This document shows positions 1 to 31,274 of a stretch of 64,000 nt of DNA, piece by piece. The notes below the pieces were generated by a model that was not told the origin of the DNA, made no database searches, and saw only the letters and a list, made by a program, of their open reading frames with translations. Location of the stretch: positions 496,001 to 560,000 of the forward strand of contig OY253669.1 in NCBI GenBank assembly GCA_958009085.1, in the 5' to 3' direction. How positions within the stretch are numbered: the first letter of the stretch is position 1; the number at the start of each line of letters is the position of its first letter. The stretch comes from Protoeuglena noctilucae (taxonomy: Eukaryota). A program made the translations under genes and the position numbers.

Positions 1-2729
1 GATATCTGAGACACGGACCCCGGTCCGGGGGAGTCGTTGTCATCCGCTGGAGTGGCCTTGAAGGAAGAGGACTTGGTGGGGCGCATGTACCTGGGGGGGG
101 GGGTGAGGGTGAGGGGGGTGCAAGGCATGGCATTACAGCACGGCATTACAGCACGTGCGAGCATGCAAACAGAGGAGTGGGGTGCCAAAGCCAGAGCAGG
201 GCGTGGCGGATTGAGGCATACACCCGCTCGCCCTCTCTCGCAATCAATAACAAGAGCGACAGTCGCAACAATCACCCATCCCCATCCCCTCGTCTCTCAC
301 CCCGGCGTGGGCCCCGAACTGGCCTCCCCCCTCAGGTGCGAGGGGTTGTGCACGCGAGCCTCAGAGATCGCCGTCAGTCCCCCCAGGGTGGGCGCGCTGG
401 GGCCCGCGGCGGATGCGGCGTCGTAGACCCTCTTGGCCCACACGGCGATGCCCGCAGCGGCCAGGGACACCGTGCGCAGGCTCTGGGGGGGGGGGGTTAC
501 GGGGTGTGGAATGCGCTGAGGTGCATGAGAAACCGTACGCAGGCTCTGTGTGTGGGGGGGGGGGGGGGGGGGGAGGAGTTAGAGGGAGGGAGAGGTGGGA
601 TGGTGGGGTGTTGACAGCGCTGAGGTGCATGAGACACCGTGCGCAGGCTCTGAGGTGAGGGGAGAGGGGTTTAAGGGGGGTAGAGATGGGATGGTGGTGC
701 TTTGAAGGTGGTGTTGACTGCGCTGATGCTCACTAGACACCCAAGTCACCCTATACATGCATGGCACTCCCCCCGCATCGCCATCACCCTCATGCACTCC
801 TACATACACTCCAACCACCCCAAACTCTCCCTCCCCCGCCCAAACCACCCACCTCCGGCTCCAGCGCCCCCCTCTCCAGCAGCACCCCCACCCTGTGCAG
901 CGCCTCGGGTGCAATGCTGAGCTTGTCCGCGTCGTTGTGCAGGATACACCGATCGGCCACGTCCTGTAGCCTATTCAAGAACCGATTGACGTCGTGCATC
1001 ATCGATAGAGCCGTCTTCCACCAATCGGGGGCGTGGGTCTTGCCCTTGGGAGTGGCGTTGCGTACGGGAACCATCACGGGGGACTGCCCCAGCAGCAAGC
1101 TCACGGCCTCAAACACCGGGATGACGGCGGGGGAGGGGGTGCGGAGGGCGCGCAGCATGGATATTTCTGGCTTGGAGATGCCCAGCAAGGCGATGTCAAT
1201 CATGCCGGTGTCGTCGGCCTCGGGGGCGGGGGCGGCCGGGGCGGACTCGGCGGCGGGGCGGGCGCGGGCGGGGGTGTCGGAAGCGCGCCTGGGGGGGGAG
1301 GGGGTTGGGGGGTGGATGTGGATGGAGAGGGAGAGGGATGGGGAGGAGGGTGGGGTGGGGTGGGTTTGGAGGGAGGGGGTGTGTGAGTGGATAATAAGGC
1401 GACGGAAGTGGGGGTGTTTGAGGCGCTCCTGGGGGGGGGGGGTTGAGAGGGGTGGGGTGGAGTGGGGGGGTGAGGTGGATGGGTGGCTAACGTGTGGGTC
1501 ACGAGGTGCATGTTGTACAGGGGCAGTTGCGTAGGGATCGACGTCCCGCACCGCACTGCGTTGTGTAAAGGCCGCAGCGAGCACAGGAGGGGTCACCCAA
1601 GCAACCATGCACACGACCACGCCTCGCTCTGTGTATGGCATGCCTAGGCAGGTAGCATGTATGTAGCATGCGTGTCCCTCACTTGAGTTTCTCGATGAGG
1701 GCGGGCTGCGTGGCCTGGTTGAGGCTCCAGATGCCGATGAGGACGGCGTGGAGCTTCTGGATTTCCGGGCCGGCCGTGCGCACCGCTGGAGGGGGGGGGG
1801 GTTGGAGGGCGTATGAGTGAGTGGGCATGTGGTGATGCATACTGCGACAAACGGTGGCTGGCATGACATGGTATAACGTGTGTAATGGAGAAAGACACGA
1901 GAGCCGCAGCGACGGGTGGTGCGGCACCGTTGACGTCGTCACCCCCACGCACGGCTGCACTCCTGCTGCCACCCCACCCCCACCCATACCACCCCCTCAC
2001 CCCCTCCCGACGTGAGCATCTCCTCCTTCATGTGCGTGATGAGCACGCGCAGCTTGGCCGCGCTCAGCGGCGACGTCAGGGCCTCCCCCAGCGCCGCGAC
2101 TAGGCCCGACGCGTCCCTCAGGGCCAGCTTGGTCGCCGTCCACGACACGCCCTTCTCGCCATAGTGGCCTGCAAAGATGGGGATAGATGAAAGAGGATGG
2201 AAGATAAGAAATGTGGAGCATGGGCATGGGGCACAGGAGACGAGGGTACGGGCGATTGCCATGCTCTCCCCGTAGTGGCCTGGGGGGACGGGGATAGGTG
2301 TCATGTGGGTGGATGGGTGGATAAGGAAACTAGAGATGCCGCGTTCTCGCCGCAGCACATCCGCACCTTCACCCGCAGCAGCCGTGCCCATGCACCCTCA
2401 CCCGGCCCCATACGCAATGTTAGCAATACCCACACCCGTAAGCACCCTCACCGCACCCCCACACACTACCATCACCACCCCCACCCCCACTCGCATCACT
2501 CACCCGCGGCCGCCATGACCCCGTCCATCACCATCCGCACCCCCGCGGGCGGCCGGGCCAGCGTCCGCACGCGGTTGAAGTCGTCCCTGGTTAACGACGC
2601 CAGCGCCGCCAGCCCCGCACGCACCCTGCTCTTGGCCCCCGGTGACTCCACGGCGTCCAGCACCGCCTCGTCGAGGGCCTGGCGGGTCAGCGACACCTGG
2701 CGCATCGCGGGGAAGGCGCCGGGGTCGCC
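1..2729 (-). CDS. Partial multi-exon gene encoding a protein with two dynein heavy-chain stalk microtubule-binding-domain (MTBD)-like repeats; 5' end unresolved near gap 1, 3' end beyond the window
   Basis: Exons ~2501-2729 (LAALASLTRDDFNRVRTLARPPAGVRMVMDGV), ~2001-2169 (VSWTATKLALRD), ~1683-1785, ~853-1288 (ISKPEISMLRALRTPSPAVIPVFEAVSLLLG...WWKTALSMM..FLNRL), ~301-483 (SLRTVSLAAAGIAVWAKRVY) and 1-91 (YMRPTKSSSFK). These match the dynein stalk pattern L-x-K-x-D-x-x-E-x-x-x-x-x-x-P-P-x-x-V-x-x-V-x-E-A-V...W...S-x-A-x-x-G-x-x-x-W. Confidence 0.6.
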
Positions 2730-2911
2730 TGGGGGGGTAGGGGGGGGGGTGTGGGTTGCGGTGACGGTCACGGAAGGGGGTGCAGAGATGGTGTGGTAGC
2801 GGGGGAACGCGGGAGTTGTGGAACTATACAAGAATTGGGGGCAAGAGGGGCTCGGGAGGATTGTAGAGGGCCACCGTCATCGCCGTGACCAGGGTCAAAA
2901 GCGCCTGCCTT

Positions 2912-3111
2912 NNNNNNNNNNNNNNNNNNNNNNNNNNNNNNNNNNNNNNNNNNNNNNNNNNNNNNNNNNNNNNNNNNNNNNNNNNNNNNNNNNNNNNNNN
3001 NNNNNNNNNNNNNNNNNNNNNNNNNNNNNNNNNNNNNNNNNNNNNNNNNNNNNNNNNNNNNNNNNNNNNNNNNNNNNNNNNNNNNNNNNNNNNNNNNNNN
3101 NNNNNNNNNNN
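2912..3111. other. Scaffold gap (200 N)
   Basis: Run of N; the round length suggests a placeholder gap. Confidence 0.99.
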
Positions 3112-3385
3112 TGTAGTAGGACAGGCGGAACGACGAGACCTGCAATGGGAGAGGGGTATGTTATTAACTGTCAGCAGTGGTTCATGAGCGTGCAGTAGGA
3201 GAGGCGGAAGGAGGAGACCTGGAGCTAAAGAAGGGTTCTTATTCATTGTCATCAGTGGTTCAGCAGCGTGTAGTAGGACAGGCGGAAGGAGGAGACCTGC
3301 GATGGGTGAGGGGGTGGCGATGTGGGTGTGAGCTGTGGTTAAGGTGTGTGTAGAGTAGTAAGGCTGGCGGAAGGAAGAGACCTGG
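3112..3385 (-). repeat. Four diverged copies (~80 bp spacing) of the MTR4 acceptor plus exon start CAG|GTCTCCTCCTTCCGCCTGTCCTACTAC
   Basis: Copies end at about 3142, 3221, 3299 and 3384. The copy near 3257-3299 reads [14 protein letters not shown] then a stop. Confidence 0.85.
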
Positions 3386-6300
3386 GAGGGAGAGAGAGGT
3401 AAAGGAAGGGAGCATGGCAAGTGATGCTTGTCTTGAGGCATACAGGGTCAGACGGGGTTGGGGTACCCCATCGTCCTCACCAGTGGCGCGGGCGTGCCCG
3501 CGATCATCGCCTTGCAGTCCGCCTTCTCCAAACTGGCATCCACCATCAGAATGACCACGCCACGATCGTCCTGTGATGTTTGACAAGCATGGGCGACAGT
3601 AACAGTCGGGCAGACGTGGGAGGGTATGAAGCATCAGGGCCACACAGATATGACTCTCACCCAGCACTCTCTATTAACGCTCTATGCCACAAATCATTGA
3701 AAGCCACGCTCACACCTCGCACCATTCACCCTGCCCACCCAATCCTCTCCCCGCGACCCCCACTCACCTTCCCACCCTCTCCCTTCAACCCCCCCACCCA
3801 CCCCACCCTCTCCCACCCCCAACGCTCACCTTCCCCCTCCTCCCCGCCCTCCCCGACATCTGGATGCACTCCCCGCTGGTCAAAAACCTGTTCTGCTCTC
3901 CGTCCCATTTCTGCACAGCAGTGAACACCACTGTGCGCGCGGGCATGTTGAGCCCCATGGCGAAGGTCTCGGTGGCAAACAGCACCTTGATGAGCTGCTC
4001 CTGCGGGTTGTGAAGGCGAGAGGTGAATGAGTGAGAGATGTGAAGGTGACTGAGGTGGCAAAGAGCATATTTATGAGCTGTTCCTGGGGAGAGGGATGGA
4101 GAGAAGATGAGTTGATGTAAATGACACTGAGAGGTGTGGAGTGATCGATGATTTTCACAAGAGACAACAGGAGGTCGATGGAACAGGATCGAGGAGACTC
4201 CCATACATGTCGGTACAGTCACTGCTAGCATGTTGATACCATCACTGATATCACATATGCTCACCTGGAACAGGATCTCGATGAGCTCCTTCAATATGGG
4301 CAGCAGCCCCGAGTGGTGGATGCCCACGCCCCGCTTCAGCAGCGGCAGGATGCGATCAATCGCTGGCAAGTTGCGGTCCTCCTCCTTCAGGCACTGCAGC
4401 GCGTTGTCGAAGACCTGCAAGGGGAGAGCGATGAAGAGTTACGATTTGATAAAATCATACATACATGAGAGACTGGGCATGGAGAGCGAAACACCTCCTC
4501 TTCCACCCCACACACACACTCTCTCTCCCCCACCCTCTCACCTCCCCACGGCGTCCAACTCTACACCCGCACCCACACCCTCACCCACACCCACGCCACA
4601 CGCATACACACATACCCCTCACCTCCCCCACCGCCTCCGCCTCCTCATCTATACACACCCTCACATCTATACACACCCACCCCCACCCATACCCCCTCAC
4701 CTCCCCCACCGCCTCAGCTTCTTCGTCGGTGTTGAACGACAGCGCCTGTGCCGCATACGCATACTGCTCGCACTCGTGGCGGGAGAAGCTGAACACGATG
4801 CAGGGATCCAGTGCCTTGTCCTTCACCAATCGAAGCAGCCTGGTCAAGTCCTGCAGGACGTGGACCTTGTTGCGGCGCTTGTCGGTCGTGGGGAGCTTGC
4901 GGCCCTTGCCGTCCTTGTCCTTGTCGGCAGCCTTGCCGCTCTTGTCGGCCTGGGATGGAGAGAGAGGTGGGGGAGTAGTGAGGGTGGGGAATGGGGTAAG
5001 GTGGCAGTGGGGTAGGGGGAGTGTTGAGTGGGGTGGTGAGGTGGCAGTGGTGGGGTTGTGAGGGAGGGAAATGGGGTGAGGCGGCAGTGGGGTAGTGAGG
5101 GTGGGGAGCGGGGTTGGGGGTTGGCAGCGATCCATTGAGGGTGTGAGCAGTCCCAACCACCCACCCATCCAACCATCCATCTTTACCCCCCCATCCCTTT
5201 CATTTCCACTACACTCTTCTGCAACCAACCACCCCCACAAGTCACAAGCCATCACCCCACTCGCCTTGCCCCCCCGCCCCCGCCCCTCCTCCCCCTCCCC
5301 CTCCACCCCCTCCCCCTCCTTCCCCACCCCAAACGAGTCCCGCAGCTCCTCGAAGTTTCTGTCCTTGAAATTCCCGAACTCGTCTTTCACCAGGAATAGT
5401 CCCTTGCCGCCCTCTGGGAACGCGTAGTGCTGCAGGGGGGTGGGGCGGTACTCTGCGGGTGGATGTGGAGAGATAGGGGAGTGGGTCAGGGTGGGTGGTG
5501 GAGAGTAATTGAGGGGGCCACTCCGCATGGGTTGAGAGGGTGACCAAAACACAACCGTACATCCGCAACACAACGACAGCAGCCCCCTTGCCATTATCTG
5601 TATCAAGCAGCATGGTCACCCTTCTGTCCTATGAACGACCAACCCCCTCCACATGTCTGCCACCCCCCCACCCCACCCCCCCCCACTCACCCGTGTACAC
5701 GACATGCGTGGGCTGCTTGCGCAGGTGGCACACCCACTCGGCAAACTCTCGGCTGTTGCTAAGCGTGGCGGACAGGAACACCATCTTGACCGTATCTGGC
5801 AGGAAGATAATCGTCTCTTCCCACACCACGCCCCTGTCCTTGTCCTGCATGTAGTGCACCTCGTCAAACACCACCCAGGCGACCTCCTTCAACACCTCGC
5901 TGCCGCGGTAGAGCATGCTGCGGAGGATCTGGGGGCAATAAGGGGGGGAGTGGGGTGGCGTGAGGGGGCGACAGGGGTGGTGGGGTGAGGGCAGGGCAGT
6001 TATCGCGGCATGCGACGTGCGATACGCCATGAGATGCCGACTGCGGTGGTCATGACAATGCAGATCAACTGTCATCGATCACAACCCCACCTCATCTCCC
6101 CACCCCCTCACCTCCGTGGTCATGACGATGCACGTCGAGTGGGGGTTGAGCGTCACGTCCCCCGTCATCAAACCCACGTCCTGGAACTCCTCCTGCAGCT
6201 CCCGGTACTTCTGGTTGCTCAACGCCTTGAGCGGGGACGTGTAGATCACCCGCTGGTTGTCCCTGCGAGGGGCAGGGGAGAGGGACGGTGAGGGCGGCAT

Positions 6301-7148
6301 GCCCACCCAAAGACAGTTGGTCGTGCGAGCAGCAGGGCAGAGCAATATGAATGGGCTCTGTTGCGCCGATATCGATGCCGTCATGTCATGCTTGTGATGC
6401 AGTTCGTAACTGCCCGTAACATGGTGTATATCGATATACATCGCAACTACTCGGCACGCACCGGAAGGCCATGGCCACCGCGTACTCTGCCACCACCGTC
6501 TTGCCCGCCGAAGTGTGCGCGGCGACCATGACGGACTCGCGACGCTCCAGGCACGCGATCGACGTCTCCTGGAAAGGGTCTAGCGTGAACGGATACGTCT
6601 TGGCGGGGGTGCCGGCGTAATTGGGAGCGTCCACCGTCCCGTGCATGGCCGGATCGAGGTCCGAGTCCCTCCAGTCCTGCGCGATGGACGCGAGCGAAGA
6701 TAAATTATTGGAGAAGCGCGGGCCGGGTCGGCGGGGACGGCCGCGCGCCGGTGGCTGCGGCCAGCACGTCTGCACGGCCCTCGCGCCACGCCGCGGCACA
6801 GACCTTTGGCAAAGCGACGTCATGAGTGCACGTCTTCGATGCGTCCGCTCCCGTAATCACGCGTGGCTTCTTCACTAATCCATCCGCCGCCTGGTGGTTG
6901 TCCCCGGACGCTTTGATGACGTCCCTGCAACCGCAGCGGAATTAGCCTATTCGAAAGCGCATATCCACGATCCCACCCCTGCGGAACATCGTACACGAAA
7001 CGTGCGAGCGAGCGGAAGCCCCCGCAATACGGCCAGGACGATGCAAAGAGCAGCCGCGACGCCGGCGACCCTTTCAGCCTCGCCTCTTCCGCTTGACGGT
7101 CTCCCTCGTGGTCGCCGCGATGGCGAGCCCCTCTGCCGTGCCCTCCAT
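3112..7148 (-). CDS. MTR4: MTR4/SKIV2L2 DExH RNA helicase, N-terminal half (RecA1 and RecA2), running into gap 1
   Basis: Exons encode [25 protein letters not shown] (Walker A), [93 protein letters not shown] and VSSFRLSYY. Probable ATG at 7148 (MEG...KRKR). Confidence 0.95.
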
Positions 7149-7584: not shown

Positions 7585-10500
7585 ATGACGGACGAGCCCG
7601 ACGAGCAAGGTGCGGAAGGGTTACATCCGTCCTGTTCCCTCGCTCCAGCGTCGCTGCGCGGCACGCCTCGCATCTGCCGCTTCGCAGGCACCGTGTCCTT
7701 CAATCTGGCGCCGCCGGAACGGAGTGCGCGCTTCGATTCGTTGGAGGATGTCTTTCCCTCCGGCGATGGCGCCGGGCCCGGGGATGAAGCTGCTGCGGAC
7801 CTGCCCACCTTCACCACGCTCGACGACGTGGTTCACTGGTGAGCATGTTACCCCACGCGGCTGCCACCTGCATGCTGAGCTCTTTCTTCCGAGGGTTTTG
7901 AGTTTTGCAACGACCCGCTGCTCAGCATCCTCGGCGACGCAGGGCGAATCAAGCCATTCAGCGCGCGAACGACGCAGCGCGACAGGCGGTGATCGCCGAG
8001 CGACTGAGAGTCGATGCGATACTGAAGCGAGAGGGGGAGCGGGAGCGGGAGCGGGAATGTGAGCGATGTGCTGCTGCCTCGCCGAGCTCGCCTCCGTCTG
8101 CGGATGCGGTTCTTCTGCAAGATTTGGCTGCGGCGCTGGGGGAGGCAGAGGACTTGCGCGCGGAGGTGGAGCGGCTCCAACAGGCGCTGGCCCAGGCGCC
8201 CGCCTCGCAAGGGTCGGGGGAGGCCCAAGCAACCGCGAGGGAGCTGGAGCGATTGCATAGGGAGATGACGGCGTTGGCGGTGCTGCGCGAGGCTGCGGAT
8301 GAGCGCGCGGCGGGGACGCAGGCGGAGCTGGAGGCCACCCGCACCACGCTGCGGACCCAGCAGCAGAACAACGCCCGCGCGGCCGCGGAGATCAAGAAAA
8401 CCCGCAGCCGGGTCAAGGAACTCGAGGAGAAGGTTGAGGAGCTGACTACCGCGAAGGTGGGGCTGCAGAGGGCGGGCCAGCGGGCGACGAGTCCAGGACA
8501 TGGCTCGGGACACGAGCGTTCGACACCTGTGTTCATGCGTGTGTCGGCCGTCCTGAGCGCTTGTTAACTGCGTTCACGCAGGACGAGCTGCAGAAGGAGT
8601 TGCGCGGGGCGAGGAAGCAGCTGAAGGACCTCAATGAAGCAAAGGCGGACCTGGAGCAGCGCTGCGAGGCTGTAGTGCTCGAAAAGCGGGACGCAGAGCG
8701 ACAGGCGAGCGATGAGCAGCGCCGATGCGATAGTGTGCAGGTTTTCAACGCTCACCACCGGCTGATGTGCGGGTCTCTCCGCCCTGCTTGCCCTTGACTG
8801 CCCACTGCGCTGTGCGTGCAGCGGGAGCGGATGCTGGCAGCCGAGCAGACGCTGCGGCAGGAGAACCTGACCATGCGGAAGGAGCTGGAGCATTTGCGCG
8901 GCGACGTCAGGACCCAGGCGGAGGTGAGCTGCGGCTTGGCGGGAGGGTCGTACCTTTGTTGCGGACAAAAGTGTGGCAGCCGCGGACCTCTGTCCGTCTC
9001 TCCAGTAATGTGGGAAAGTGGTTTCGCCATACAACACGTCTGAGTCGCTTGTATATGTAAAATGACTCGCCAAGCTTGCCTCTCAAGCCACACAGCATTG
9101 TTACCGTACTTCCCCCGCAGCGCCTCTCTTCCCTGGAGTCCCTGCTCCACCGCGCCACGACCATGTCCCAGGCGCGCGCCATCTACGATTCCGCGCGCGC
9201 CAGGGCACCGCAGCAGCCGCATCAGCCATCCCAGGCCAGCGACTCCTTGCATTTGTCACCAACTGCGAGCGCGGCACCTGCTGCATCCGCTGCGCCCGTT
9301 AATGCGACCGGGGGCGACTCCGCGGCGCCCAAGGCCTCGCGAGGGACGTCGGCGGGGAGCGGCAACCGCGCGCCGTCGGACGCGCCCACCGTGGATGTGG
9401 CGGGGGCGAATGCGGAGGGCGGGGATGGGGACGCGGAGGCGGACCGGGGGTCGGGTTGGTGAGTTATGAGTGCATGCTTGGAAATGAATGACGAGAATGA
9501 TCCATGACAATTACTATTGTTGTTTCGCGATGATGACGGATCCAACTGCGGTGCACCTCTCGACACTCCCATGTGCTTTCTCTGACACAGTCCCCTGCCT
9601 GTCCTTTGTCCCAGGCCCTCGGACCCACTGACCCTGGACCGCCCCGCACCCTCGGTGTCTCCCTCGGCCCCTCGCCCCTCAGGCGCATCCCCACCCATCA
9701 TCCTCGACGCCGTCACCCTCACCACATCGGCACCCAAGGTGACACACATGCACGCTGCTGCTACCCACGTATGCGACAGACGCATCGTTTGATCACGAGA
9801 CCCTGTTCACATGCAGTCAAGTTGCACTTGCAGTGAACCCCCACTCCCACCGCCACCCCTCTGCCCCATCGCGACCTCTCACTCTCTTCCTGTCCTCAGA
9901 GCACCTTCTTGCGCCGGTCCAAGACGGGCGGCCCACGCAAGGACCGTGGGGCGGCGGAGGTCGCGCGTGATAAGGCGGACGATGACGCGTTGTCATTGGT
10001 GAAGCGATCCGGGCCCATGCGGCGCGTGGGGAAGCTGCAGGAGATGCTCAGGCGGTCGGAGGCGGCGAGGATGGAGCTGGAGCGGGACATCATGCAGGGG
10101 GAGGTGAGACTGCAGTGCTGGTGCGAGGGTGCAGTGGTTGGTATGACATGCAGGGGGAGGTGAGTGGAAGTGTGTGGGGCTGCACTGGTTGAATGTCGTG
10201 ATGCCGGGCGAGGGAAGACAGGAGACTCGGCTCACCAAGACAGTCTCTTCCCTGACACTTACAGTCTCTCTCACGTCCCCTGCAGGACGAGCTCTCAGCT
10301 CTCCTGGCGTCCCCCACCCTCGTCTCGCGCTTCACGGGGGTCACCGCGCTCCCCACTCCCTCCCCCAGCGCGTCTGCGCTCTCTCCGTCCCAGCGCACCG
10401 ATCGCGCCGACTCACTGCTGGAGCCAACGCCCAGTTATTCCCCGGGCAAGAGCAGCGTGGGGCAGGCGGGGGTTACAAGTGCAGGGCCTGGGCCGCTGTC

Positions 10501-11224: not shown

Positions 11225-11889
11225 CATGACCATCAGGACACAACATGGGCACAACGTGCGACACTACCACTACGACCACTCTGGGCATGACTGCACCGTG
11301 CACCTGTGTGCACCTGTGACACACTGCGCTTAGCATGCATGCGTGCGTGGTTGCTGGCAGCAAGGGACGGTGTGCTTGCTGCACCCCTGTGTGCTGGTCA
11401 GATGCCTCCCATTTCGATCTGGTGAGATCGGTCAGGCCTGGGGTGTGTATCCAGGGCAGTTGCGACCACAAGTTGCGACCACAACAGTGCCCCAGCCAGG
11501 GCAGGCTGGGCTTTTTCTGATTGCCGCCATGCATTATTCTTGTAATAGATGTTCCTATATTCTTCTTATGAGCTTTTGTGACCTCGTAGTCCCTCTGCCG
11601 TGCATTGGCGAGTCTCTGTCACGCCCAGGGTTTGCCCCGCATGTCCCTTTACTCAGGCTATCCACTCCACTCCTAGTCACTACCATGTATGATTCAGGGC
11701 CTTTGTGCCCGCCCTTTCAAAGGTGCCCAAAGACACGGTGGGGCCCGTGGGCCAAGGGCAGTACTGGCAGAGAAGCCCTTTACACTCAACACGGTAAATG
11801 CATCAGCGTTTGTTTTCAAATGCACGAAGCCTCACAGGTCACACCCGTCGGCCCATCCTCACAGCTGACCCGCGATGATATGCGATGGC

Positions 11890-12150
11890 CCACCCACTCC
11901 CTCACAACAGCACCCTCATCGCCATATAGTCCCTTACAGCATTTTGTCCCCTCACAACAGCCCTCTCCTCTCCACCCACTCCCTCACACCGGCATGCCCC
12001 TCCTCACAGCATCCCGTCCCCTCTCGCTACATTCCCTCACAGCGGCATTCTCTTCTCCATCCACTCCCTCACAACAACACACCCCCTCCTCACAGCAGCA
12101 TCCTCCTCTCCATCTATTCCCTCACAGCGGCATGCTCTTCTCCATCCACG
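11890..12150. repeat. Degenerate tandem repeat (ccctcaca-gc-...-tccatccact) overlapping and downstream of the stop of the kinase-phosphatase gene
   Basis: About 9-10 copies of a cctcaca core with variable spacers; the copy at ~12120-12150 is the coding C-terminus (WMEKSMPL*). Confidence 0.7.
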
Positions 12151-15100
12151 TCTCCCAGAAGGCCGCCCGGGCCACGGCAAACGCCCCCTCGGACATGCCC
12201 GCCACCACGCCCCGCGTGTTGTGCACGCGGTCCTTGGGGATGTCCTCCACCCGCTTGAAGGGAGGCAGGGAATAATCGTAGGGATCGCCCAGGGCATCGA
12301 CCAGGAAGCCACCCAGGGAACGGATGACCGCCTCCGGGGCCGCCGTGTCCCAGCGCTTGGTGCCGCCACTCGCAAACACTGCGGGGGGGGAGGGGGTGGG
12401 AATGAAGAAGTGAAGGTTGGGCTAGGGTGCTGACTGGCTTTGGTGTGGGTATTGGGCTGGCTGTGGCTGTGGTAAGCGCAGCGTATGGCATAAGGGTGCT
12501 CACGCCTCAGTGCTGGTGCACAAGCCCTTGCCCCGTGCCACTAACACCTACCCATGCCCATGCTGCTAACACCTACCACATGCCACCCGGCGCTCCTCCC
12601 TAATGTCTTTACCCTCACCGTAGTGTGACACTTCCCCGTCCATAAGCATCATGGCCTTGTTGCCCGCGCCCCCCACCGCCAGGACCCGCTGTGCGTCCGG
12701 CTGCACCCGCAGAGCCGCCTCCTGCACCTCGGGAGACGAGTGGCTGCGCGTCGTCGCCACCACCATCTCGCCGTCCCGGTTGCGGCCCTGCGAGCGACGG
12801 CCGATGACAAGCGTCGCGACGCAAGCAGGCACCGACGGACGCTCGCGATGCCAGCTGTGCCATGATGAGACGATGCAACAGATGTGAGCGAAAGCTGACT
12901 CAGTATCACGTGACCTATACAACCGCAGTCGATCCCCGCTCCTCCATCCACAGCAGCGAGAGCCAGGCGGTGCCACACCCAAACCCCCACCCAACTCGCC
13001 TTCTCCATGAACTCTCTCCAAGGGAAGGTCTTGGCATCGATCCTCACGAACTCCGGCCGCGGCTCCCCCTCGCCGTCCGCGTACTGCCGCACAAACGCCC
13101 CCGCCCCGGGGATGCCCACGACCGTCCTGGGCCCGCCCCTCGCGAACGGCTGGTGCACGATGCCGCACACGGGCTGCCCCCGCAGCGCCAGGCCGACCAG
13201 CACCGTCACGCCCGGGGCATTGCCCAGCAAAAGCTCCCGGGTGCCGTCGAGCGGGTCGACCCACGCCGTCAGCTCCCGCCAGTCTGCCTGGCGCACCACC
13301 GAGGGAAGGGCCGCGAAGAAGCCCGGCACTGACACGGCACGGAAGACTGCGGGGAGAGAGGGGTTGTGACGGTGTCTGTGCTGCTGGGAGGGTGCTGTGG
13401 TAGTGACAAACCTCGGGGGTGGTGGGTCAAGGGGTTGAATTTGTGGCAAGTGCCTTGGAATGTTGCCGTTGCTTACAGTGGACAAGAGGACTGGTACAGC
13501 CAATCGATCATCGCAAGGATCGCAACTCACCGCCTGCGTCACCCCGCAACTAATCATCACCATGATTGCATCGTGGTGACCCACCAGTCACCCACTCACC
13601 CGCCTGCGCCGCCTCGCTTCCGAAGATGGACTCCAGGGACGGCCCCTCCTGCGCCCCACCGCCCGCGCCCCCACCTCCCGACTCCCCACGGCTGTCCGCC
13701 CCCGTCTCAAACATCTCCTCGCCCATCACCTGCGATTGCACAGGCACACAGCCACAGGCACGTCACTCGCAGTGATACATGCACCTCGCCATCGACACAG
13801 GTGCCGTGTTCTGCCACCCAATGCTGCCTATCCCGTTCGGCCAGCCCAGACTGCCCAAGACCAATCTGTGCGGCTGCTTGACCACCCGACCACTCGCCTG
13901 GATGCCCGGGAAGGCCTTGACCAGCGACCCGACCACCAGACGCTCCGCCTCCACGTCCGCCGCCGTCTGGGGATCCATTGGCACCGCAGCCGCCCCGTCC
14001 CCGTCCGACGAACCCACGAGCGCCCCGTCCGCCTCCGTTGCCACGCCGTCGCCCTTGTCCCGCACCGCCAGGGCCCCCTCGTCCGCCTGAGTCGGGTACT
14101 GGCGAATCACGCGCCCTGCATCCTCCGCCAGGTGCGCGCCCGCCGCCGCGAACTCCATGACCGGGCCGCGGAAGAGGGAATCCCAGGAGGCGTCCAGAGA
14201 TTCCGTGAGAGGGCCGGGGGGACCCTCGGGACCCACGCCGCGCATTCCCGGGACGGGGGCGCGGGACCAGTCCATGTGGGGCCCGTCCTCGCCCCCGGTG
14301 CCCGCGGCGATGATGTCCGCGCAGCGACACGCGAGGCGGAGGAGGTGCGGGGCGTGGCGGCGGTGCATGCCGAGGTTTCGCGCCCCGTGGCGCGTGGCGC
14401 AGCCGACCGGCGTCACGCCCTTCCACATCGAGCCGGCGAGGAAGCGGACGTAGTCGACCAGCGCGGCGTTGTAGAGACCGCGGAACTCCTCCGTGGTCGG
14501 GATGCGCTGGCCCTTCTTGGCCACCTCGGGCAGAAGCGAGGCGAGGTACGTCATCACGAGCTCCGACTCGTGGTCGCGGACCACGTCGGGGTCCACGGAG
14601 GACCAGATGAGGTACACGAGGTCGACCGCCGGGCAGCCGAGGCCTGCGGGGGCGCGCAGCGGGCGTTCGGCAGACATCAGCGGGTGCCGGCCGCAGGGTG
14701 CGGCGGGAGCGACGCGCCGGCGCTCACCCGCCCACTGCCAGTCGACGACGGCGACCTTAGACCCGCGCAGGAAGAGATTGGCCGCCTTGTAGTCGCCGTG
14801 CAGGACCGACTTCCACGTCGAGCGCTGCAGCACGTAGTTGGCCTCCGAAGCCCAGCTGCGCAGGGACGTGCCGAGGCCGCGGACGCCCTCCGATCGCGCG
14901 ACGGGGTGCACGGACGCGAACGACTCGATCGTCGCGGCCCAGTTGGACTCGAGGTCGCCGATGTCGCCCTCGCGCTTGGACAGCGACCAGTAGCTGCCCT
15001 CCGACCACAGCCCCGCGACCTCCGTCTCCTCCACTGCGAAGAGAAGGAGCCAAAGAAATGATCTGCATCCCGAGCGGCCGGGAGCAACCGCCGCGACCGC

Positions 15101-19400: not shown

Positions 19401-22400
19401 ACCCACTCACCCACCCACCCCGCAGGCTCCCACCCCGACGGCCACCCCCCCGGCCCCCGCCCCGACCGCCCCCTCACTTGCCTGCGCCTCTCCCGCCCCA
19501 CCGCACGCGGGGCGTCCCCCGGCTTCCCCCTGGACATCACTGACACCCCAGGCTGGCACGACCCCCCCTGCGCCACCTCTCTGCTCCTGCGGTGGATTCT
19601 GGCGGGGGCGGTGGGGCCAGGCACGGCGCTGCCTGGGGCGACGGCGGGGGACTTTGAGGGTAAGGTGGAGGCGGTGATGGGGAGGGCCCGGGAGGCGGCG
19701 GGGAGGGGCGTGGGCATTGAGGAGAGGCCGCAGGTGAGAGTGGGAAGGGTTTGGTGTGAGTTGGGTGTGCGTGGGTGGCGGGGAGGGGCGTGGGCATCGA
19801 TCAGGTGGCGTTGATCGTCATTCATCAGCAAGACTCATTGATTCATTACTAAGACTCAACCCCACCCCTCTCGTCCCCCCAGGTGGCCGTCATCGTGGTC
19901 TCCCTCCAGGACCTCCAGCGCGCGCGGTGCGAGGGGGACGGGGCTACTTTGGAAGAGAGCCTGGCGAGGGCCCAGGCAGCGCTAGACGTCGCCAAAGAGG
20001 CCGCAGACCAGGCACGGGCGCTGTTGGTGCCCCCGCTGCTGGCGGTCACGTTCTGGGAGGATGGGGAGGGTGCGGGGGTGACCGGGGATGGGGTGGGTGG
20101 TATGGAGGAGGTGGAGGGGGTGGCCACTGCGTTGGAGGCGGTGGTGGCGTGGGCGGCGGCGCTGGGCATTGACAGCGACGACGTGTACCTGGTGCAGGTG
20201 GGAGATGGGGTGGATGGGATGGGGTGTGGTTGGTGTGTTGGTGGGGCTGGCGAGTAGGGAAGGGAGGGGTTGAGAGTGTACTTGCAGTCTCTTGGCGGCT
20301 GCTCACTCTCATCACTCCCCATCCCCCTCCTCCCCTCGCAGCTCCCCAGCAAGTCCTCCCTCCGTGGCCAGTCCCTGCGATCCCTGCCCCATCCCAACCT
20401 CCTCAGAGACCTCGTGCGGGCCATGTTCAGGTGAACACTTATTTTAACACTGTTCATGTAGCTACTCGTGTGCACGTGAGACATGGGCATAGATTGGTTT
20501 TGATAGCCTTCACCCCCTTATCTCTAATCCACCTCACCGCCCCCCCCCCCCCCCCCCCCCTCACCACCGCATGCACCCCTCCCCTTTCCCGAGCTCACCC
20601 CATACCACCCCATGCACCCCTCCGCTCCCCCTCCCCCCAGGTCCGCCGCGCTGTGCCGAGAGGCCGCCCCCCGCACCCTCACCATCCCACTGCCCACGTC
20701 CCCCAGCCCCCGCCGCGGCTGGCAAGCTGGCTGTGCAAACGCAGATGCGGCCAGCGATGTGCCGCGGATGTGGGAAGAGGAAGAGGATGACAATGGGATT
20801 ATCGACGAGACAGTGACAGCGAACACGCATGGGATGGTGCATGGCATGCCACGCGACGCTGCTGATGAGGGGCAGTGGAGTGCGGCTGCGGGCGGGGTGC
20901 ATGCGGGTCGCGGGGTTGGTGACGATGGGCAGGGCGGTGCAGAGTCGAGGGCCTCATTGCACGGCTGGAGCGACAACGGTGTCGGTGCGGGTGCGGGTGG
21001 GGCGTGGACCGGTGCTTCCTCTGCCCCGCTCCGCGACGATTTCGAGAATTGGGACGACGTGTTTCCCGGCATCGATCTGCCGGAGGGGGCCGTGGTGGGG
21101 GAGCGGGGCGCCGAGGTGGTGCTCGACACGTGAGTGGGGGTGAAGGGTGTGGTCGTGATGGCGCTGGGTATGTGATTTAGCAAAGGAATCGCTCGCTCTC
21201 TTGCCAGCAATATCCAGTCACCCGTCATGACCAAGCGAGGCGCGGCGTGCCGTCACGCACAGCGCATGGCAACTACCAATGCCTTACTATTGCAACCACC
21301 CTTACCCCCCTCGCAGCACCCTGGGCGGTGAGCTGGTCTGCTCAGACGCGTCCTCGGGATGCGATGACTCCGATGACGCCCATGAGCATCACCCCATAGC
21401 AACCAGCATCTACTCGGGCGTGCGTGCGAGGGCGCCCATCCCCGGCTTGGCCCACGATGTGTCGACCGCATCGGAGCCGCCCATGCGCAGCCCGGCCATG
21501 CCCGGGGTGGACAGGGGGGCGTGGAGGGCGGGGAAGAGAGGTGGGTGGGGGGGTGGGGTGGAGGAGTGGGGGGGTAGGGATGTAGAGACGGTCTGCCGGG
21601 GCCTGTGATGAGGGGAGGGGTGGTGGGGCATACGTGTGGCAAGGGTTCGCGATGCTGTAGTGGGGTGGCAAAGAGGCAGTGTCTTGGCTATGGTAGTGAG
21701 CCAAGGGTGCCTCTTACTGCTGTGTTCTTTCCGCAGAGTCCTCGACGGCGGGGAGGGACGGCAAAGAGGCGGAGGCGGGCAAGGCGGCCCCGGCAGCGAC
21801 AGGGAGCCCCGGCCACCCCGCGCACGGCGACGACTCTGGCAATGACTCTGGCAACGATTCTGACACTGAGGGTGGGATGCCTCTCGAGGTGGAGGACTGG
21901 GGATTCCCTTTGGAAAGCGAGCGGGGGGAGGGGGCGAGGGACGGAGGGGCGGCGGCCCAGGGCAGCGGTGAGATGGGGATGGGGAGGGGTGGTGGGAATG
22001 GGGGGTTAGCGTGTGGCAGTGGTGAGATGGGGAAGGGAAGGAGTAGTGGAGTGCTGTCGGAGAGGGGGGAGTTGATGCAATGCGGTGTGCTGAGGGCCTT
22101 GCTCTGGAGGGGTGGCACGTGTGGGTGACTCGCTAAACTCGCTAAATGCATGTGACGGTGTGACTGGCCCGACTCACATCTCATGTGAAAGTGACCCGCT
22201 CACACCGCTGCCGCCCCTTTCAGGTGGAGCTCGCCGGTCTCTGGACGCCCATGGATCCCGCACCGCGTCCTCGGAGGTACCCCGCCGCCCTGAGTCAGTC
22301 CTTGGTCAGTCGGGCCTGGGTCAGGGGGCCGTGAGGGGTGCCTCTGAGGCCAGGGGTGTGACGAGGGTGTCGAGCACTGGGACGGACAGGGATGAGGAGG

Positions 22401-23282
22401 CGTGGTGAGGGGGGAGGGGAGGGCAGGGATGAGGAGGGGTGGTGAGGGCTGACCGTACTCTTCAACCAATCACCTGCCATTCAATCGCCAACGGGCTCTC
22501 AACCTACGCTACACACTCTGTGACACACTCCTACCCTTATTGTCACCCTCTGTTACACACTGCCACCCTTACTGTCACCCTCTCACACCCACTGCCACCC
22601 TCATCGTCACCCTCTCGCGCCCACTGCCACCCCCATCGTCACCCTTTCACACCCACTGCCTCCCTTACTGTCACCCCCCAGGCTCCCCTCCTCCCGGGCC
22701 AACGTGGCTGCCATCCGCCCCGCCCGCACCGGCAGCATGGGGCAGCGCATCCTGGGATTCTTCAACAGGACGCGGAGCAAGAACCAGGCGAGTGACAATT
22801 AATGATTCACTACCCTGACTGGGGCATTGGATATGACAGCTGCTGCTGGCACTGGGGGCTATGCACACGCACCCGGCAGTCACCGCGCTTCAATGACCAA
22901 GCGCCGTCTCTCTTACATTGTCGTGCCTCCATGCTTGCTCTAAACACCCTTTCGCCACCTCAGGCACCCAGTCACACCACCCACCCTTAGGCTGATGCGT
23001 CACCATCTCCACCTCCACCTCCACCCGCAGGCCCGCAAGGCCCAGGCGAGCGGCCACGAGGCAGCCGACGGGGCGGGCGAGGATCCCGAGACCACCCGCG
23101 GTGCTAAGAAGCCCCAAGTGCTGGAGCGCCTGCCGAGTGCGGTCGTGATGAGCACGCCGCGGGGGGGGGGACCCAATGGCCCGGGGTCGCCTCGCCGGCT
23201 GAGGATGCAGCTGGACTTCACGGATGAGGCGCTCAGGTCGACGTTATCGCCGGAGAGGGCGCGGGCGGGGAGCGACACATGA
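16438..23282 (+). CDS. Large multi-exon protein: hydrophobic N-terminus, central P-loop NTPase-like domain, long low-complexity tail (3' extent uncertain, may be two genes)
   Basis: Hydrophobic segments (LATCVMSLQLVAILALTALFP..ILAFLSSSLLAAGLV). Exon ~19080-19224 has AVLLGPSGSGKSRLVDAIAW (Walker A); the exon from ~19883 has VAVIVVSL...LLAVTFW. Consistent GT/GC-AG sites. Confidence 0.5.
22533..22681 (+). repeat. Intronic minisatellite, ~30 bp unit x ~5 (cccactgccaccc-cat/tac-tgtcaccctctcaca), ending at a splice acceptor
   Basis: Recurrent gtcaccc and cactgccaccc units; the last unit ends ...tgtcaccccccag. Confidence 0.75.
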
Positions 23283-23638
23283 CAGGATTTGGCATGGGAT
23301 GGCATGGTATGGCATGAGATGGGTGGATCCGAGCGACGGCGGGGGTTCGGGTGATGCTAGCCATTAGCAATGGGCCAGTATGTGCCGTGTGCGAGCCTGC
23401 AGTGTGCCAGCCTTGCTTAGAGTGATGTCCCAGCCTGACCGATGTACCCAACATGTTGCCCATAGGTGATTTAAGCGAGCGCAGGTTGCCTGCACTTAAC
23501 GATACCAGCTGCATCGCCAGATGAATGCCAATGTACTTGGATGCGTACCAATGCGCTGGTACAAACGTGATCGCAGCTGCACGCCATCTATGCCTTACTC
23601 CCGCCCACGCCGCCGCCCCCCACCCACATCGCCAGAGG

Positions 23639-25440: not shown

Positions 25441-25640
25441 NNNNNNNNNNNNNNNNNNNNNNNNNNNNNNNNNNNNNNNNNNNNNNNNNNNNNNNNNNNN
25501 NNNNNNNNNNNNNNNNNNNNNNNNNNNNNNNNNNNNNNNNNNNNNNNNNNNNNNNNNNNNNNNNNNNNNNNNNNNNNNNNNNNNNNNNNNNNNNNNNNNN
25601 NNNNNNNNNNNNNNNNNNNNNNNNNNNNNNNNNNNNNNNN
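25441..25640. other. Scaffold gap (200 N)
   Basis: Run of N. Confidence 0.99.
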
Positions 25641-25945
25641 GAGGGAGTGGAGGGGAGAGGTGAGGGGTGGAGATGGGTGGGATTGGGAGAGGGGGAGTGG
25701 GGGGGACAGGTGAGGGTGGGAGATGGGTGGGAATGGGAGAGGGAGAGGGGAACAGGTGCAACCCAGGTTTCCCCCGACCACACCGCTGCCTCACCCCCAT
25801 CCACTCCCTCACTCTCTCACCCCACTCACCCCAACTCACTCTCACCCCACTCACCCCTCCCCACCCCCCCCCAGCTTTTCCCCGACCACACCGCTCACTC
25901 ACTCCCTCACCCCCACTCACCCCACCCCCCACCCCCCCCAACCCA

Positions 25946-28342
25946 GCTCTCCCCCGACCACACCGCCGCCTGGGACCTTTTGCAACGCCGTGCCGTGCTG
26001 GACCGAGAACTGCGAGAAGTACGCGCACGCATCGCAGCACGCATGTCAGACCCCGCGCACTGCCTGAAGTTCCTGAAACCGGGGAGGGTGGTGAGGGTGG
26101 CCAAGGGGGAGGAGGACTACGGGTGGGGAGTGGTGCTCCTGGTCATGGAGCCTAAGAGGAAGGGGGCGACTGGCACGGCGACTGGCAGTGCCACCGGGAC
26201 ACCCTTTAAAGCGCGTGATTACGTGGTGGATGTGCTGCTGGAATGCGCACCGGAGGAGGTCAGCCCGGTGCCCAGGCCGCCACGGGGGGGGGAGGCCGCG
26301 ACGCTGCGGACGGTGCCGGTGCGGCTGCCGCTGGTGGTATGCATATCCAAGGTGAGAGAGATGGGTGGGTGTGGGGTGTGGGGTGTGCATGTGCGACTGC
26401 CGCTGGTGGTGTGCTTATCCAAGGCGAGGGGTGAAGGGGTGTGGGGTGTGGGGTGTGCAAGTAAGGCTACCGCTGGTCGTGGGACGATCTCATGGCCTCT
26501 GGCCTTCCATCCAAGCCTCAAACAACACAGCAATCTAACAACACTTGTCCCTACCCCCCCAGTTTCGCGTGACTTTGCCCAACGACTTGAAGTCCCCCAC
26601 TGCGTTGGGCGCGGTGATGCGCACCATCCGGCAGCTGGTGCGGAGCAAGGGGGGGGCGGACAAGGTGCCGAGGCTGGGGCTGGTGGCCGAGTTTGGGTAC
26701 AAGGACGAGGAGGTGAGGGATGCGGGGGCGTAAGGGTGTAAGGGGGTGGTAGGTGAGGAGGTGAGGGGTGGGGTGGGGTGGGGGTGGGCGATGGTGTGAC
26801 GTGAGAGCATAAGCAAATTTGCGGGGAGGTGCCAACCTGTCATGTGCTGCGGCTGGCTGCGCTTCGTATCGTGCCGCGATGCCTCTGCGCATCCATGGCC
26901 ATCTCACCTGTCATGTCTTGGCAGATGTGGTGCTCGCTGCCCATGCATTGCCATCACACATGTACTGCCATCTCCCATGTGCTTTCCTTGCACATCTCCC
27001 CAGGCCGCCACCCTGGATCGCCGGGAGGAGGAGATCTGCCGTGAGCTGGAGGGGGCGGAGACAGCGGGGGTGGACCCGGCGCTGATGAAGCGCATGCGCA
27101 GGACACTGGAGAAGAGGGCGGACCTGCAGGCGAGGGATGAGGGTGGGGGTGGGGATGTGAGATGGATGTGATGTGTAATGTGAGATGAGAGGGAGGCAGA
27201 CCTGCCGCAGGCGAGGGGTGATTGTTTACAAATGCAGGTCTCTGGTAGCCACTACCATCCCCCGTCCCAACCCCACTCCCCATCACCCCCACCGCTCCTC
27301 TCATCCCCACCCACCCCACCCCTCCCTACCCAACCGCCCCCCCCCCCCCCCCCTCACTCCCACCCCACCCCACCCCTGAATCCCCCACCCCCCCCAGGCC
27401 CAAGAGTCTGAGTTCCGCCGCGCGGCCAAGCGCTCCATGCTGGCGACCTTCCACTCCGAAGCCCAGCGACGCACCGCGGTGCTCACCCGCCTGGGCCACG
27501 TCGACGCCTCGGGCATCGTGACCCTCAAGGGCAGGGCCGCTTGCGAGATCGACACGGCCGACGAGTTGGTCACGACCGAGTTGATGTTCAATGGGGTGTT
27601 TGCGGAATTGGACGTGCACCAGCTGGTGGCGCTCGTGGCGTGTTTGGTGCCTGTGGAGAAGACCCAGGACGAGGTGCACCTGTCGCGGACGCTGGGGCCG
27701 GCGCTGATCAAGCTGCAGGTGAGGGGCGGAGTGGGGTGGGGTGGGGTGGGTGGGTGAGAGTGAGGGGGATGGGGTGGGTGAGAGTGAGGCCTTTAAGCGT
27801 TTGTCTGTGTGTGTATGGGCTGGTATAGCTATGCATTGGCTGTGCATGGTGTGGGATGCATTACACATGCCACGCCCACCGCCCATCCCTTGGCCTGCAG
27901 GAGACGGCGCGCCACGTGGCGGAGGTGTCGGTGGACTGCAAACTGGACGTCGACGCGGAGGAGTACGTCCAGTCGTTCCGACCCTCTCTGATGGACGTGG
28001 TGTACGCGTGGAGCAAGGGGGCGCCTTTTGCGGACGTCTGCCGCATGACGGAGCTGTTCGAGGGGACCATCATCCGCGCCGTCCGGAGGCTCCACGAGCT
28101 CATGGGACAGGCGAGGACTGCGAGGGGCGACTGGTGTGGGCAAGAGCGGCTTTGTTAGCAATCTGCCAGCCGTTGGCAGTGGCCGTGGCTGTCGGGCACA
28201 GCTGAGCGGGGGTCGTTTCCGGTCACCGCAGTTGCAACTGGCTGCCGTGGCGATTGGGGACACGAATCTCGCGGAGAAGTTCAAACAGTCGGCCGACACC
28301 ATCCACCGGGACGTCATGTTCGCGGCGTCCCTGTACGTCTGA
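25946..28342 (+). CDS. MTR4: MTR4 helicase, C-terminal half (arch/KOW and DSHCT domains), starting after gap 2
   Basis: HCLKFLKPGRVVRV..DYGWGVV (KOW), VLTRLGHVD..IVTLKGRAACEIDTADELVTTELMFNGVF, FRPSLMDVVYAWSKGAPFADVC, FEGTIIRAVRRL, IHRDVMFAASLYV*. Confidence 0.95.
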
Positions 28343-29190: not shown

Positions 29191-30241
29191 ATGTCTACCG
29201 AGACCCAGGTGCGCCGCGCGACCCTCTTTGCTCTACGAACGCCCGACAACGAAACCATCTTCTATGTATCTATGTCTTCTACACATCTTCTACTCCCCGC
29301 AGGGCATGTCGGCCCTGCTGCGCTCGCCGGGCTACCTGCGCAAGCACATCGGTCTTCAGTTCGAGGCCGTTTGGAGCCAGCACCGTCGCAAGGTCCTCGC
29401 GGCAGCCGCTGTCCTGGCCGTCTTCCTCCTCTGGCGCGGCATGTGGTACACGGCGCGGCTGTTCGTGAATTTCAAGGAGGATGCCGCCGAGCTGGGCTTC
29501 CTGGCGGCCTCGGCTTCCACGCTCATGCTGGCCGTGGTGTTTGTGCGGTGAGCGGGCGTGCTGTGATGCCGATCGCGTCTTACTGCAATGGCTAGTCGCA
29601 CTCACTGTTTCCAATACCACCAGTACCTCCCCCATCGTCACAGCCGTGCGTTGTGCGCCATGCGCTACCCAGTGCATGCGTTGTCGACATCCTTGTCCTT
29701 ATCCCTGCAGGTGGCGTCTGACCGTGAGCCCTGAGGCGGTGTATCACCAGGCAATGAGGCGGCTCACCCGGTCTTCCCTGGTAGACCAGGTGAGGTTACC
29801 AGGACAGGCGATGCGTGTGACTGCGGTGGTGGCACGGATGTCGATGCTCTCCCATCTACTGTTCCCTCAACTGCTACCACCACCATCCTTACCCTCTCCT
29901 CCACAGTTTTCTCAGCCACATTGACCCTCCTTTCTGCACCCACCCTCAGCCACCACCACCCATAGATTTGTCTACCCCCTCATACGACCCCACCCCTTCT
30001 CCTCCCCCCACCCCCCAGGTCCTCGGCTTTCCCCTGGCTGGGTCCGACGTGCGCGCTTACATGATGACGGGCGGCCATTTGAAATTTAAGCCCTGGTGGC
30101 GCGTGGGGTGGCGCAGCCAGCGTTGTCACATGGTGTTCCCCGTGTCTGGATCTGAGAGGCGGGGACTGGTGTCGATCGAGTGCAAGAAGCGGCACGGTAG
30201 GGTGAGCATGGTATGGGTGTGTTTGTGTGTGGTGTGGTGTG

Positions 30242-30274
<33 letters not shown>

Positions 30275-31274
30275 GGTGTGTGGGAGCGGTGTTCAATGCT
30301 CTGACCATGCACATGCATTGCTCACTTATCTTACATAGTTCTTGTATCTCTTTTCATGCAGTACGTGTTCAAGGCCCTTGCCGTGGACGTCCCCAGCGCC
30401 GCGGGGGCCGAGAGGCGGATCTTCTTGGAGGGCACCCCGGCCATGTTCAACCGGGGAGGGGTGCTGAGGTGAGGGGGGGTGGTGTTGTTAGTGGTGGGGT
30501 GCTGAGGTGAGGGGGTGGGTGGCAGGAGGGGTGGGGTGCTGAAGTGAGGGTACGGCAGACCCACAGCCACCATCGCCATCCACTCCCTGCCTTCTCCTCA
30601 CCTCTCACCTCTCTTCTCTCCAACCACCTCCTTCCCCTCGCTTACGACCCACGTCCTTCCCTGACCCTTTCCTGACACAACACCACTCCCTCGCAGGGAG
30701 TTGCGCGACCCCTTCCTGAAGGTGTTGAACCTGGAGGAGACATATGAGGCGGAAGACGAGGCCGAGGATGAGGCGGAGGAGGAGATGAGTCTGGAGGAGG
30801 AGCACCGGGAGAAGCTGACCGCGATGCACGAGGGGAGGCCGGGTGAGTGACATTGGGGGGAGGTGGCGAGTGGAATGAATGAGATGGTTGAGATGCACGA
30901 GGGGAGGCCGGGTGAGTGAGGGTGGCATGGAAAGAAGGTGGCATGGGGCGCGAGGGGCCTCACCACATTACCACCTTCTGTGTGCGTCTGCTGGTGTAAT
31001 TGGCGAGCATTTATCGGCGCTATCAGTGCAACGTTCAAAGTTATTCATAACCATGCCTTTACCCGCAGTGTATTTCACGGACTGGGTGCGGCACTGGGCG
31101 TCGGCGGCGTGGGGGCGGGTGAGGGCGAGGAGGGAGGAGGGCGAGGGAGCGGAGCTGGGCCAGGCAAAGGGTGCAGAGGGGGCAGAGATGAAGGCAGAGG
31201 CAGGGAACGTGGGGAAGGAGGAGGGCAGTGCACCCGCAGCGTCGCAGGCAGGGCCGGCAAAGACGCCGCAGTGA
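29191..31274 (+). CDS. Plant-type TIM21-like mitochondrial inner-membrane protein
   Basis: Two hydrophobic helices, then VSPEAVYHQAMRRL, VLGFPLAGSDVRAYMMTGG, RCHMVFPVSGSERRGLVSIECKK, KALAVDVP, ELRDPFLK and an acidic tail. This resembles land-plant TIM21-like proteins. Confidence 0.75.
30214..30282. repeat. Intronic (GT)n microsatellite
   Basis: Perfect gt dinucleotide run at ~30242-30266 with imperfect flanks. Confidence 0.9.

Follow-up and report, generated by a model that had tools for sequence, protein, structure and literature searches.

In a 64,000-nt stretch of DNA from Protoeuglena noctilucae (assembly GCA_958009085.1, contig OY253669.1, positions 496,001 to 560,000 of the forward strand; hereafter the window), introns of several genes carry diverged head-to-tail copies of their own exon-intron boundary. 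We call such copies junction echoes, and the additional splice sites that they contain decoys. In total, 14 echo junctions with 20 decoy sites were found in five genes, eight of the junctions on the donor side and six on the acceptor side. We regard these echoes as probably the ordinary by-product of repeat-rich introns, namely of end-biased tandem duplication combined with survivorship, with no new mechanism acting on splice junctions. All tests were conducted on this one 64-kb window and on homologous proteins.

Junction echoes and their specificity to each locus

Gene models were obtained with a small splice-aware ab initio gene finder trained on the window itself, which gave about 18 genes, and 102 clean introns were used after four manual corrections of the models. 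The translations were judged to be sensible, including an MTR4-like helicase and an ABC transporter; from reading the translations, further products look like lipin-like, FG-repeat nucleoporin-like and tubulin cofactor D-like proteins. The G+C content is 56-75%, and the introns are short (median 162 nt), with donors of the GTGAG type, a G-rich 5' part and a C-rich 3' part, a composition that looks like that of a Chlamydomonas-type green alga. N gaps of 200 nt each are present at 2912-3111 and 25441-25640. Long simple tracts were also noticed within introns: 20 G at 554-573, 21 C at 20540-20560, and a GT repeat of approximately 34 units at 30217-30282.

An initial annotation of this DNA had listed ten echo loci, and gapped alignments and repeat families confirmed every one of them as a diverged head-to-tail copy of its own exon-intron boundary; four additional loci are marked in Table 1, the last of which has an uncertain gene model. 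The repeat spacing is 37-140 nt, with some arrays reaching three to four copies and with periods of 37, 70, 78 and 108 assigned by Tandem Repeats Finder (TRF); the real site and its decoy are 37-242 nt apart, and each copy carries 7-45 nt of exon. Some details of the annotation had to be revised. The phenomenon had been described as window-wide, but all 14 junctions are located in the first 31.4 kb; the "several unrelated genes" are five genes, with 3112-7148 (-) and 25947-28342 (+) being halves of one MTR4-like gene; and of the three donor copies proposed at 4535-4725 the second is solid, while the third shares only 6 exon nt and G-rich intron.

In an unbiased self-scan, every offset of 25-300 nt was examined with 24-nt windows requiring at least 20 matches, together with complexity filters. 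This gave 83 direct matches, against 0, 1, 2, 0 and 3 at five far offsets, and not one near inverted copy was found in the window. The 83 matches correspond to 27 loci: 12 straddle a predicted junction with a visible copy of the junction, two are doubtful (22379, where the exon is uncertain, and 20084, which is G-rich and 114 nt from a junction), six are intron-internal, four are exonic, and one each lies at a gap edge, lies over a predicted stop codon or is chance-like. The match at 20084 was left out as doubtful, as was one at 55049 (offset 274).

As a complementary check, junction probes composed of 30 nt of exon end and 8 nt of intron were aligned to their own intron and to the 101 others, with two of the 204 probes dropped on account of N. 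This is, within the window, the comparison that the initial annotation had proposed, and it supports the annotation: the own intron beat all 101 others for 17 of the 202 probes, where about two would be expected (binomial 2.8e-11), and for 15 of 202 when the exon part was used alone. Control probes taken from mid-exon, 52-90 nt inside the exon, found their best match in the own intron in 0 of 202 cases. Chance similarity is thus excluded as the source of the echoes. The same alignments, together with the contrast between near and far offsets, bear out the statement that the copies are locus-specific and do not represent a shared transposon, and a mobile element common to the introns was rejected on this basis. 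Snap-back or inverted templated insertion is disfavoured by the lack of near inverted copies. An early positional profile of 20-mers gave numbers too small to be informative (donor end 6/46, acceptor end 3/52, intron interior 0-17%).

Table 1. Junction echoes and other tandem arrays in the window (positions are those of the window; distances are measured from the real splice site, and fractions are matching nucleotides)
Position	Strand	Feature	Description
460..662	-	Acceptor echo	Intron 483-852, exon from 482 downward; decoys 63 and 167 nt inside (~529-564, 633-662); exon part 15/17 and 17/17; AG intact in both
1270..1461	-	Acceptor echo, additional to the initial annotation	Intron 1289-1682; decoy 140 nt upstream (1410-1461); exon part 15/19; AG present; splice score equal to that of the real site
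2148..2300	-	Acceptor echo	Intron 2169-2503; decoy 111 nt upstream (2265-2300); exon part 13/15; under the threshold of the unbiased scan, added by targeted alignment
3112..3398	-	Acceptor echo array, MTR4-like gene	Exon start 3139, adjoins N gap; three decoys at 79, 157 and 242 nt; unit of ~35 nt intron tail and ~42 nt exon, period 78; exon part 26/30 and 28/30 for the first two decoys
3971..4112	-	Acceptor echo, MTR4-like gene	Intron 4001-4264; decoy 83 nt upstream (4054-4112); exon part 25/30
4512..4727	-	Donor echo, MTR4-like gene	Real donor 4701|4700, intron 4415-4700; decoy at 78 nt (23/27), in-frame, open, 9-mer identical to the real site; weak G-rich decoy at 159 nt
10084..10191	+	Donor echo, additional	Intron 10104-10285; decoy donor 56 nt downstream; exon part 13/13
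19691..19810	+	Donor echo, additional	Intron 19734-19882; decoy donor 71 nt downstream; ~43 nt of exon copied with a 9-nt deletion, best stretch 25/27
21961..22049	+	Donor echo	Intron 21968-22223; decoy 54 nt downstream; exon part of the unit only 6-7 nt
22379..22452	+	Possible donor echo, additional	37-nt period; exon call uncertain, may be intron-internal
25759..25971	+	Acceptor echo, MTR4-like gene	Exon start 25947; decoys 72 and 180 nt upstream; exon part 18/20 and 22/25; period 108
26313..26480	+	Donor echo, MTR4-like gene	Real donor 26351|26352; decoy 72 nt downstream, GT changed to GC; exon part 34/39; period 70; partial third copy at ~26466
30453..30555	+	Donor echo	Intron 30469-30696; decoys 38 and 75 nt downstream; period 37
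30816..30925	+	Donor echo	Intron 30843-31068; decoy 69 nt downstream; core 28/28 identical
6046..6132	-	Exon-derived 17-nt fragment (16/17)	70 nt inside intron 5929-6111; junction no longer recognisable
4970..5118	-	Intron-internal tandem array	Period 80, 20 nt from acceptor
20555-20631, 22512-22678, 33099-33175, 41350-41444, 42819-42890		Other intron-internal scan loci	
11886..12152	-	Tandem array over predicted stop codon	Periods 32/53/85; gene 12122-16093
38573-38864, 47336-47415, 48095-48194, 63623-63721		Exonic tandem arrays	Within coding exons

The MTR4-like gene and the working splice site

The most useful gene for deciding which copy is the working splice site was the MTR4-like gene, because protein homologues are available for it. 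The protein P0006, a 1112-residue MTR4 of a close relative that is 87% identical over one exon, aligns with its residues 1-611 to 7148-3478 (-) and with its residues 683-1112 to 25965-28339 (+). Since the alignment of P0006 is divided in this way between both strands, the two apparent helicase genes are one gene, with about 60 codons missing in the N gaps. The block 3112-25440 between the gaps accordingly looks inverted relative to its flanks, and the simplest cause would be a contig placed backwards in the scaffold. On the minus strand at 23639-24172, a 177-codon open frame with a strong codon bias (G+C of 0.89 at third codon positions) and no Pfam match adjoins the second gap and is possibly a remnant of a mobile element.

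Sequences of solved FRH/MTR4 structures and P0006 run without gaps across the donor 4701|4700 to the exon at 4417, the acceptor 4000 (4265|4000) and the donor 26351|26352 (26351|26563); P0006 is moreover contiguous across 3478|3139, and aligns from 25965 onward. Use of the decoy at 4622 would insert 26 residues, and no homologue has such an insert. At these five junctions of the MTR4-like gene, the homologous proteins place the working splice site in the exon-proximal copy. For the remaining junctions, the exon-proximal assignment was made on the basis of the ab initio models and of codon-position periodicity. When the real exon parts were compared with their decoys, the differences at codon positions 1, 2 and 3 numbered 10, 14 and 37 of 139, 137 and 133 sites, respectively (p=7e-6); the excess at position 3 shows the real copy to be coding and constrained in the predicted frame. 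The share of position 3, 37 of 61, is close to the 1:1:2 (50%) that we would expect for a constrained exon beside a freely drifting copy, a ratio obtained by reasoning and not by computation.

Two observations on introns of this gene are added here. Besides its acceptor echo, the intron 4001-4264 (-) contains a 12-16-nt fragment of the end of the upstream exon at 4179-4190, and thus both of its borders have left copies inside. The predicted intron 27130-27397 (+) has a GC donor, at a junction consistent with the orthologue alignment, and an 11-nt copy of this junction, again with GC, is found 77 nt downstream. Searches for further homologues gave little: a poorly conserved exon matched nothing but the window's own open reading frame, and for the exon with the 25947-26480 echoes neither a relative's reading frame of near length nor a close relative among metagenome contigs turned up.

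State of the decoy sites and intron length

The view that echoes create decoy splice sites holds well: GT or AG is kept in 18 of the 19 tabulated decoys, or in 19 of 20 when the one at 19805 is counted, and with our own splice matrices the scores of 16 of 19 differ from that of the real site by no more than 1 nat. The decoys in fact misled our gene finder, which took the donor at 4622 and called a spurious 6-nt exon at 10154. The distance to the real site is a multiple of 3 for 10 of 19 decoys (p=0.065), seven of which are also open. Retention of the dinucleotide in 19 of 20 exceeds what 15% neutral decay would leave (P=0.013), but when the four exon-derived fragments that have lost the junction are added, retention becomes 19/24 (P=0.31). 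There is therefore no clear sign that the decoys are either protected or purged.

The echoes also lengthen introns, as had been proposed, with the copies accounting for 1445 of the 11025 intron nt in the first half of the window. The median length of the echo-bearing introns is 277 nt and falls to 157 nt once the copies are removed, a value close to the 162 nt of all introns in the window.

Junctions compared with other positions

The initial annotation had further suggested a duplication mechanism centred on splice junctions, and on this point our results differ from it. Mid-intron probes were drawn from the 72 introns that are 120 nt or longer, at 40 nt into the intron, and had local copies in 8 of 144 cases, compared with 17 of 202 for the junction probes (Fisher p=0.40). 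Nor is the junction central in the repeat unit, of which on average a share of 0.33 is exon. We also simulated 40000 duplications whose unit lengths were those observed and whose positions were uniform along the pre-mRNAs; the detection filter was the one used for the scan, and 1129 draws that touched N or non-genic sequence were dropped. The observed share of scan loci straddling a junction, which can be counted as 12/18, 13/19, 14/21 or 15/22, fits the simulated share of 0.53 (P=0.11-0.18). The reason can be understood from simple geometry: for a unit length d and an intron length I, there are I-2d+1 internal placements and about 2d placements across the two borders, and because the introns are short relative to the unit, most tolerated duplications must straddle a border.

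Tandem arrays away from splice sites point in the same direction. The four exonic arrays have periods of 144, 51, 93, 27, 42, 60, 30 and 72, all of which are multiples of 3. In the array at 11886..12152, the first unit consists of the last 8 codons and the predicted stop, further units lie in the presumed 3' untranslated region, and the real end is identical to the copy 85 nt downstream at 32 of 33 nt; this stop codon is an ab initio call, and since nearly every unit has a GTGAGG core, a misread donor is possible. The stop-codon array and the in-frame exonic arrays together indicate that the process is not bound to splice sites. The array at 38573-38864 is located in a Gly/Ala/Ser/Phe-rich repeat protein resembling an FG nucleoporin.

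Weighing the explanations

According to the explanation we favour, short tandem duplications in head-to-tail orientation, whose units measure about 37-140 nt, would arise often in the G-rich 5' and C-rich 3' intron ends, and some of them would expand to three or four copies. A duplication that straddles a border would leave the mRNA unchanged as long as the exon-proximal site stays in use and would for that reason survive, while frame-breaking duplications in exons would be removed; the inner copy, with its exon piece and splice signal, would become intronic and decay as neutral sequence. In its favour, the data show copies that are direct and specific to their locus, an exon-proximal site that yields the conserved protein, decoys that have diverged in the manner of unconstrained sequence, and similar rates at junctions and within introns; the in-frame exonic arrays and the array over the stop codon bear the mark of such survivorship. 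The molecular route would be replication slippage or unequal exchange, and the decoys would presumably be silent in RNA.

Several observations weigh against this explanation, and some of them suit a mutational hotspot at intron ends or junctions, possibly caused by replication forks that stall or slip where G/C runs or tracts prone to G-quadruplexes occur, or by transcription- or R-loop-linked repair, under which introns would grow from their ends and junction copies would be more frequent than position alone predicts. By thirds of the intron, the 22 intron-internal TRF arrays are distributed 11/4/7 (Kolmogorov-Smirnov p=0.03), and those with periods of at least 10 are distributed 10/2/5 (p=0.006); five of the six intron-internal scan loci lie 3-28 nt from the acceptor. 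Internal arrays thus crowd the intron ends, as a study on Chlamydomonas and Volvox also describes (PMC3887541), and some end-directed bias is therefore real. The units are mostly intronic and reach only a short way into the exon, with a mean exon share of 0.33 and a maximum of 0.58, against 0.53 in the simulation (p=0.0035); possibly an acceptor-side unit is harmless only if it brings along a branch point and a pyrimidine tract, and long exon pieces might strengthen a decoy. In the first half alone, the junction probes exceed the mid-intron probes (16/106 vs 6/90, p=0.07). Echo junctions number 14 of 108 before 31.4 kb and 0 of 96 after it (48 introns; p=1e-4), and this regional clustering is unaccounted for by a uniform process; the median intron length is 201.5 nt in the first half and 123 nt in the later genes. 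In addition, a single 64-kb window gives low statistical power, and the junctions outside the MTR4-like gene are those of our own ab initio models. G/C runs of at least 7 occur in 5 of 13 echo-bearing introns and in 12 of 89 others (p=0.04), an association confounded with length and region: 10 of the 41 echo-free introns of the first half also carry such runs, and only 2 of the 48 later introns do. As to the slippage at G/C runs proposed in the initial annotation, the end bias leaves room for a sequence-driven hotspot in the G-rich and C-rich intron ends, but the specific link to G/C runs is weak. The idea that 5' intron parts are piles of decayed donors was not convincing, as GTGAG ranks only 4th of its 20 anagram 5-mers there (33 vs a mean of 21). 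CTCAC, which we take to be similar to the branch-point consensus, ranks first among its anagrams in the 3' intron halves (60 vs a mean of 25). A hotspot at intron ends or junctions nevertheless has against it the overall similarity of junction and mid-intron rates, the straddling share that fits uniform placement, the stop-codon echo and the in-frame exonic arrays, and the zero inverted copies, which are contrary to snap-back templated repair; we consider it unlikely, while giving it more weight than the two explanations that follow.

One of these is that the decoys are kept for use, either as alternative sites giving in-frame variants or for tuning splicing efficiency or intron retention. The high retention of GT and AG, the near-equal scores and the proportion of in-frame, open distances are what this would lead one to expect, but the retention is unexceptional once the junction-less fragments are counted, the in-frame excess is not significant, the exon parts of the decoys contain in-frame stops and differ from the real exon also at codon positions 1 and 2, as the 3112-3398 array exemplifies, and homologues are without inserts at these sites, so that we find such a role quite improbable. 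An artefact, in the form of assembly errors in a gapped short-read scaffold or of misplaced exon borders, appears to us more improbable still. It could appeal to the two N gaps, one of which adjoins the 3112-3398 array, to the apparently flipped scaffold block, and to the ab initio origin of most junctions. The copies, however, have diverged by 10-25% and carry indels, which is not what collapsed or duplicated reads would look like; the open reading frame carrying the donor echo at 4622-4700 recurs without a single difference on three ENA contigs, one of 372637 nt and two no longer than 2400 nt, which are perhaps not independent assemblies; five echo junctions are fixed by homology; and the coding frame beside the junctions is confirmed by the differences, which follow a three-base period.

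Comparison with known systems

The closest single analogue is a 37-bp minisatellite in human F7 IVS7, whose first unit spans the exon 7-intron 7 boundary; its pseudo donors were shown by experiment to be silent, with the most upstream site being chosen (Borensztajn et al. 2006, PMC1557585). In both cases the units are direct, head-to-tail and tens of bases long, the border unit holds the exon end and the splice site while the inner units repeat the site, and the exon-proximal site is the authentic one, as judged in our window by homologues at the five junctions of the MTR4-like gene. The differences are that F7 is one mammalian locus affected on the donor side only, whereas here 14 junctions on both sides within 31 kb of a GC-rich, alga-like genome have mostly two to four diverged copies, and that the silence of the pseudo-sites was proven there, while here it is presumed.

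With regard to green algae, the accessible part of Zhao et al. 2014 (PMC3887541) describes the introns of Chlamydomonas and Volvox as repeat-dense, with units of 1-50 nt and a U-shaped distribution of repeats along the intron, which the thirds given above reproduce in our window. Repeat units extending over the border, with the splice site duplicated, are not mentioned in that part of the paper, and among titles and abstracts of open-licence papers and preprints (without supplements) we found no alga described as having such units at many of its junctions.

Two further systems can be compared. In tandem acceptors of the NAGNAG type, the sites are 3-12 nt apart and often both used; they likewise present two usable-looking splice signals in tandem, but the sites here are 37-242 nt apart and each copy carries 7-45 nt of exon. 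In the model attributed to Rogers, introns are said to be gained by tandem duplication of an exonic AGGT, with cases reported in potato and Drosophila, and the new intron would reportedly start like the downstream exon and end like the upstream exon. Here too, a short tandem duplication within a gene yields duplicated splice signals, with the difference that the introns in our window pre-existed and were merely lengthened. Intron creation of this type was rejected, as its signature was found in 0/101 and 3/101 introns (p<=0.01; about one expected by chance).

Implications

The copies have a practical consequence, in that they mislead gene finders, and one array falls together with a break in the assembly, at 3112. 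In terms of intron evolution, about 13% of the intron length of the affected genes stems from such duplications. If the decoys are ignored by the splicing machinery, many spare donors and acceptors of full strength are tolerated in this organism at 37-242 nt inside the introns, and a strong positional rule is implied, by which the splicing machinery chooses the first of several donors and the last of several acceptors; each echo locus then represents a natural test of that rule, and such tests are available on both sides of the intron. It is conceivable, though we are doubtful of it, that introns grow mainly from both ends, where a hotspot in the G-rich 5' tract and the C-rich 3' tract would keep duplicating the border region, with an outermost-site-wins rule making the copies harmless. 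If this were true, the echoes would represent the recent and still legible traces of a process governing intron length, and perhaps the odd composition of intron ends, across GC-rich green algae, and they would amount to dozens of natural experiments, with duplicated sites, on the choice of the spliceosome among equal sites.

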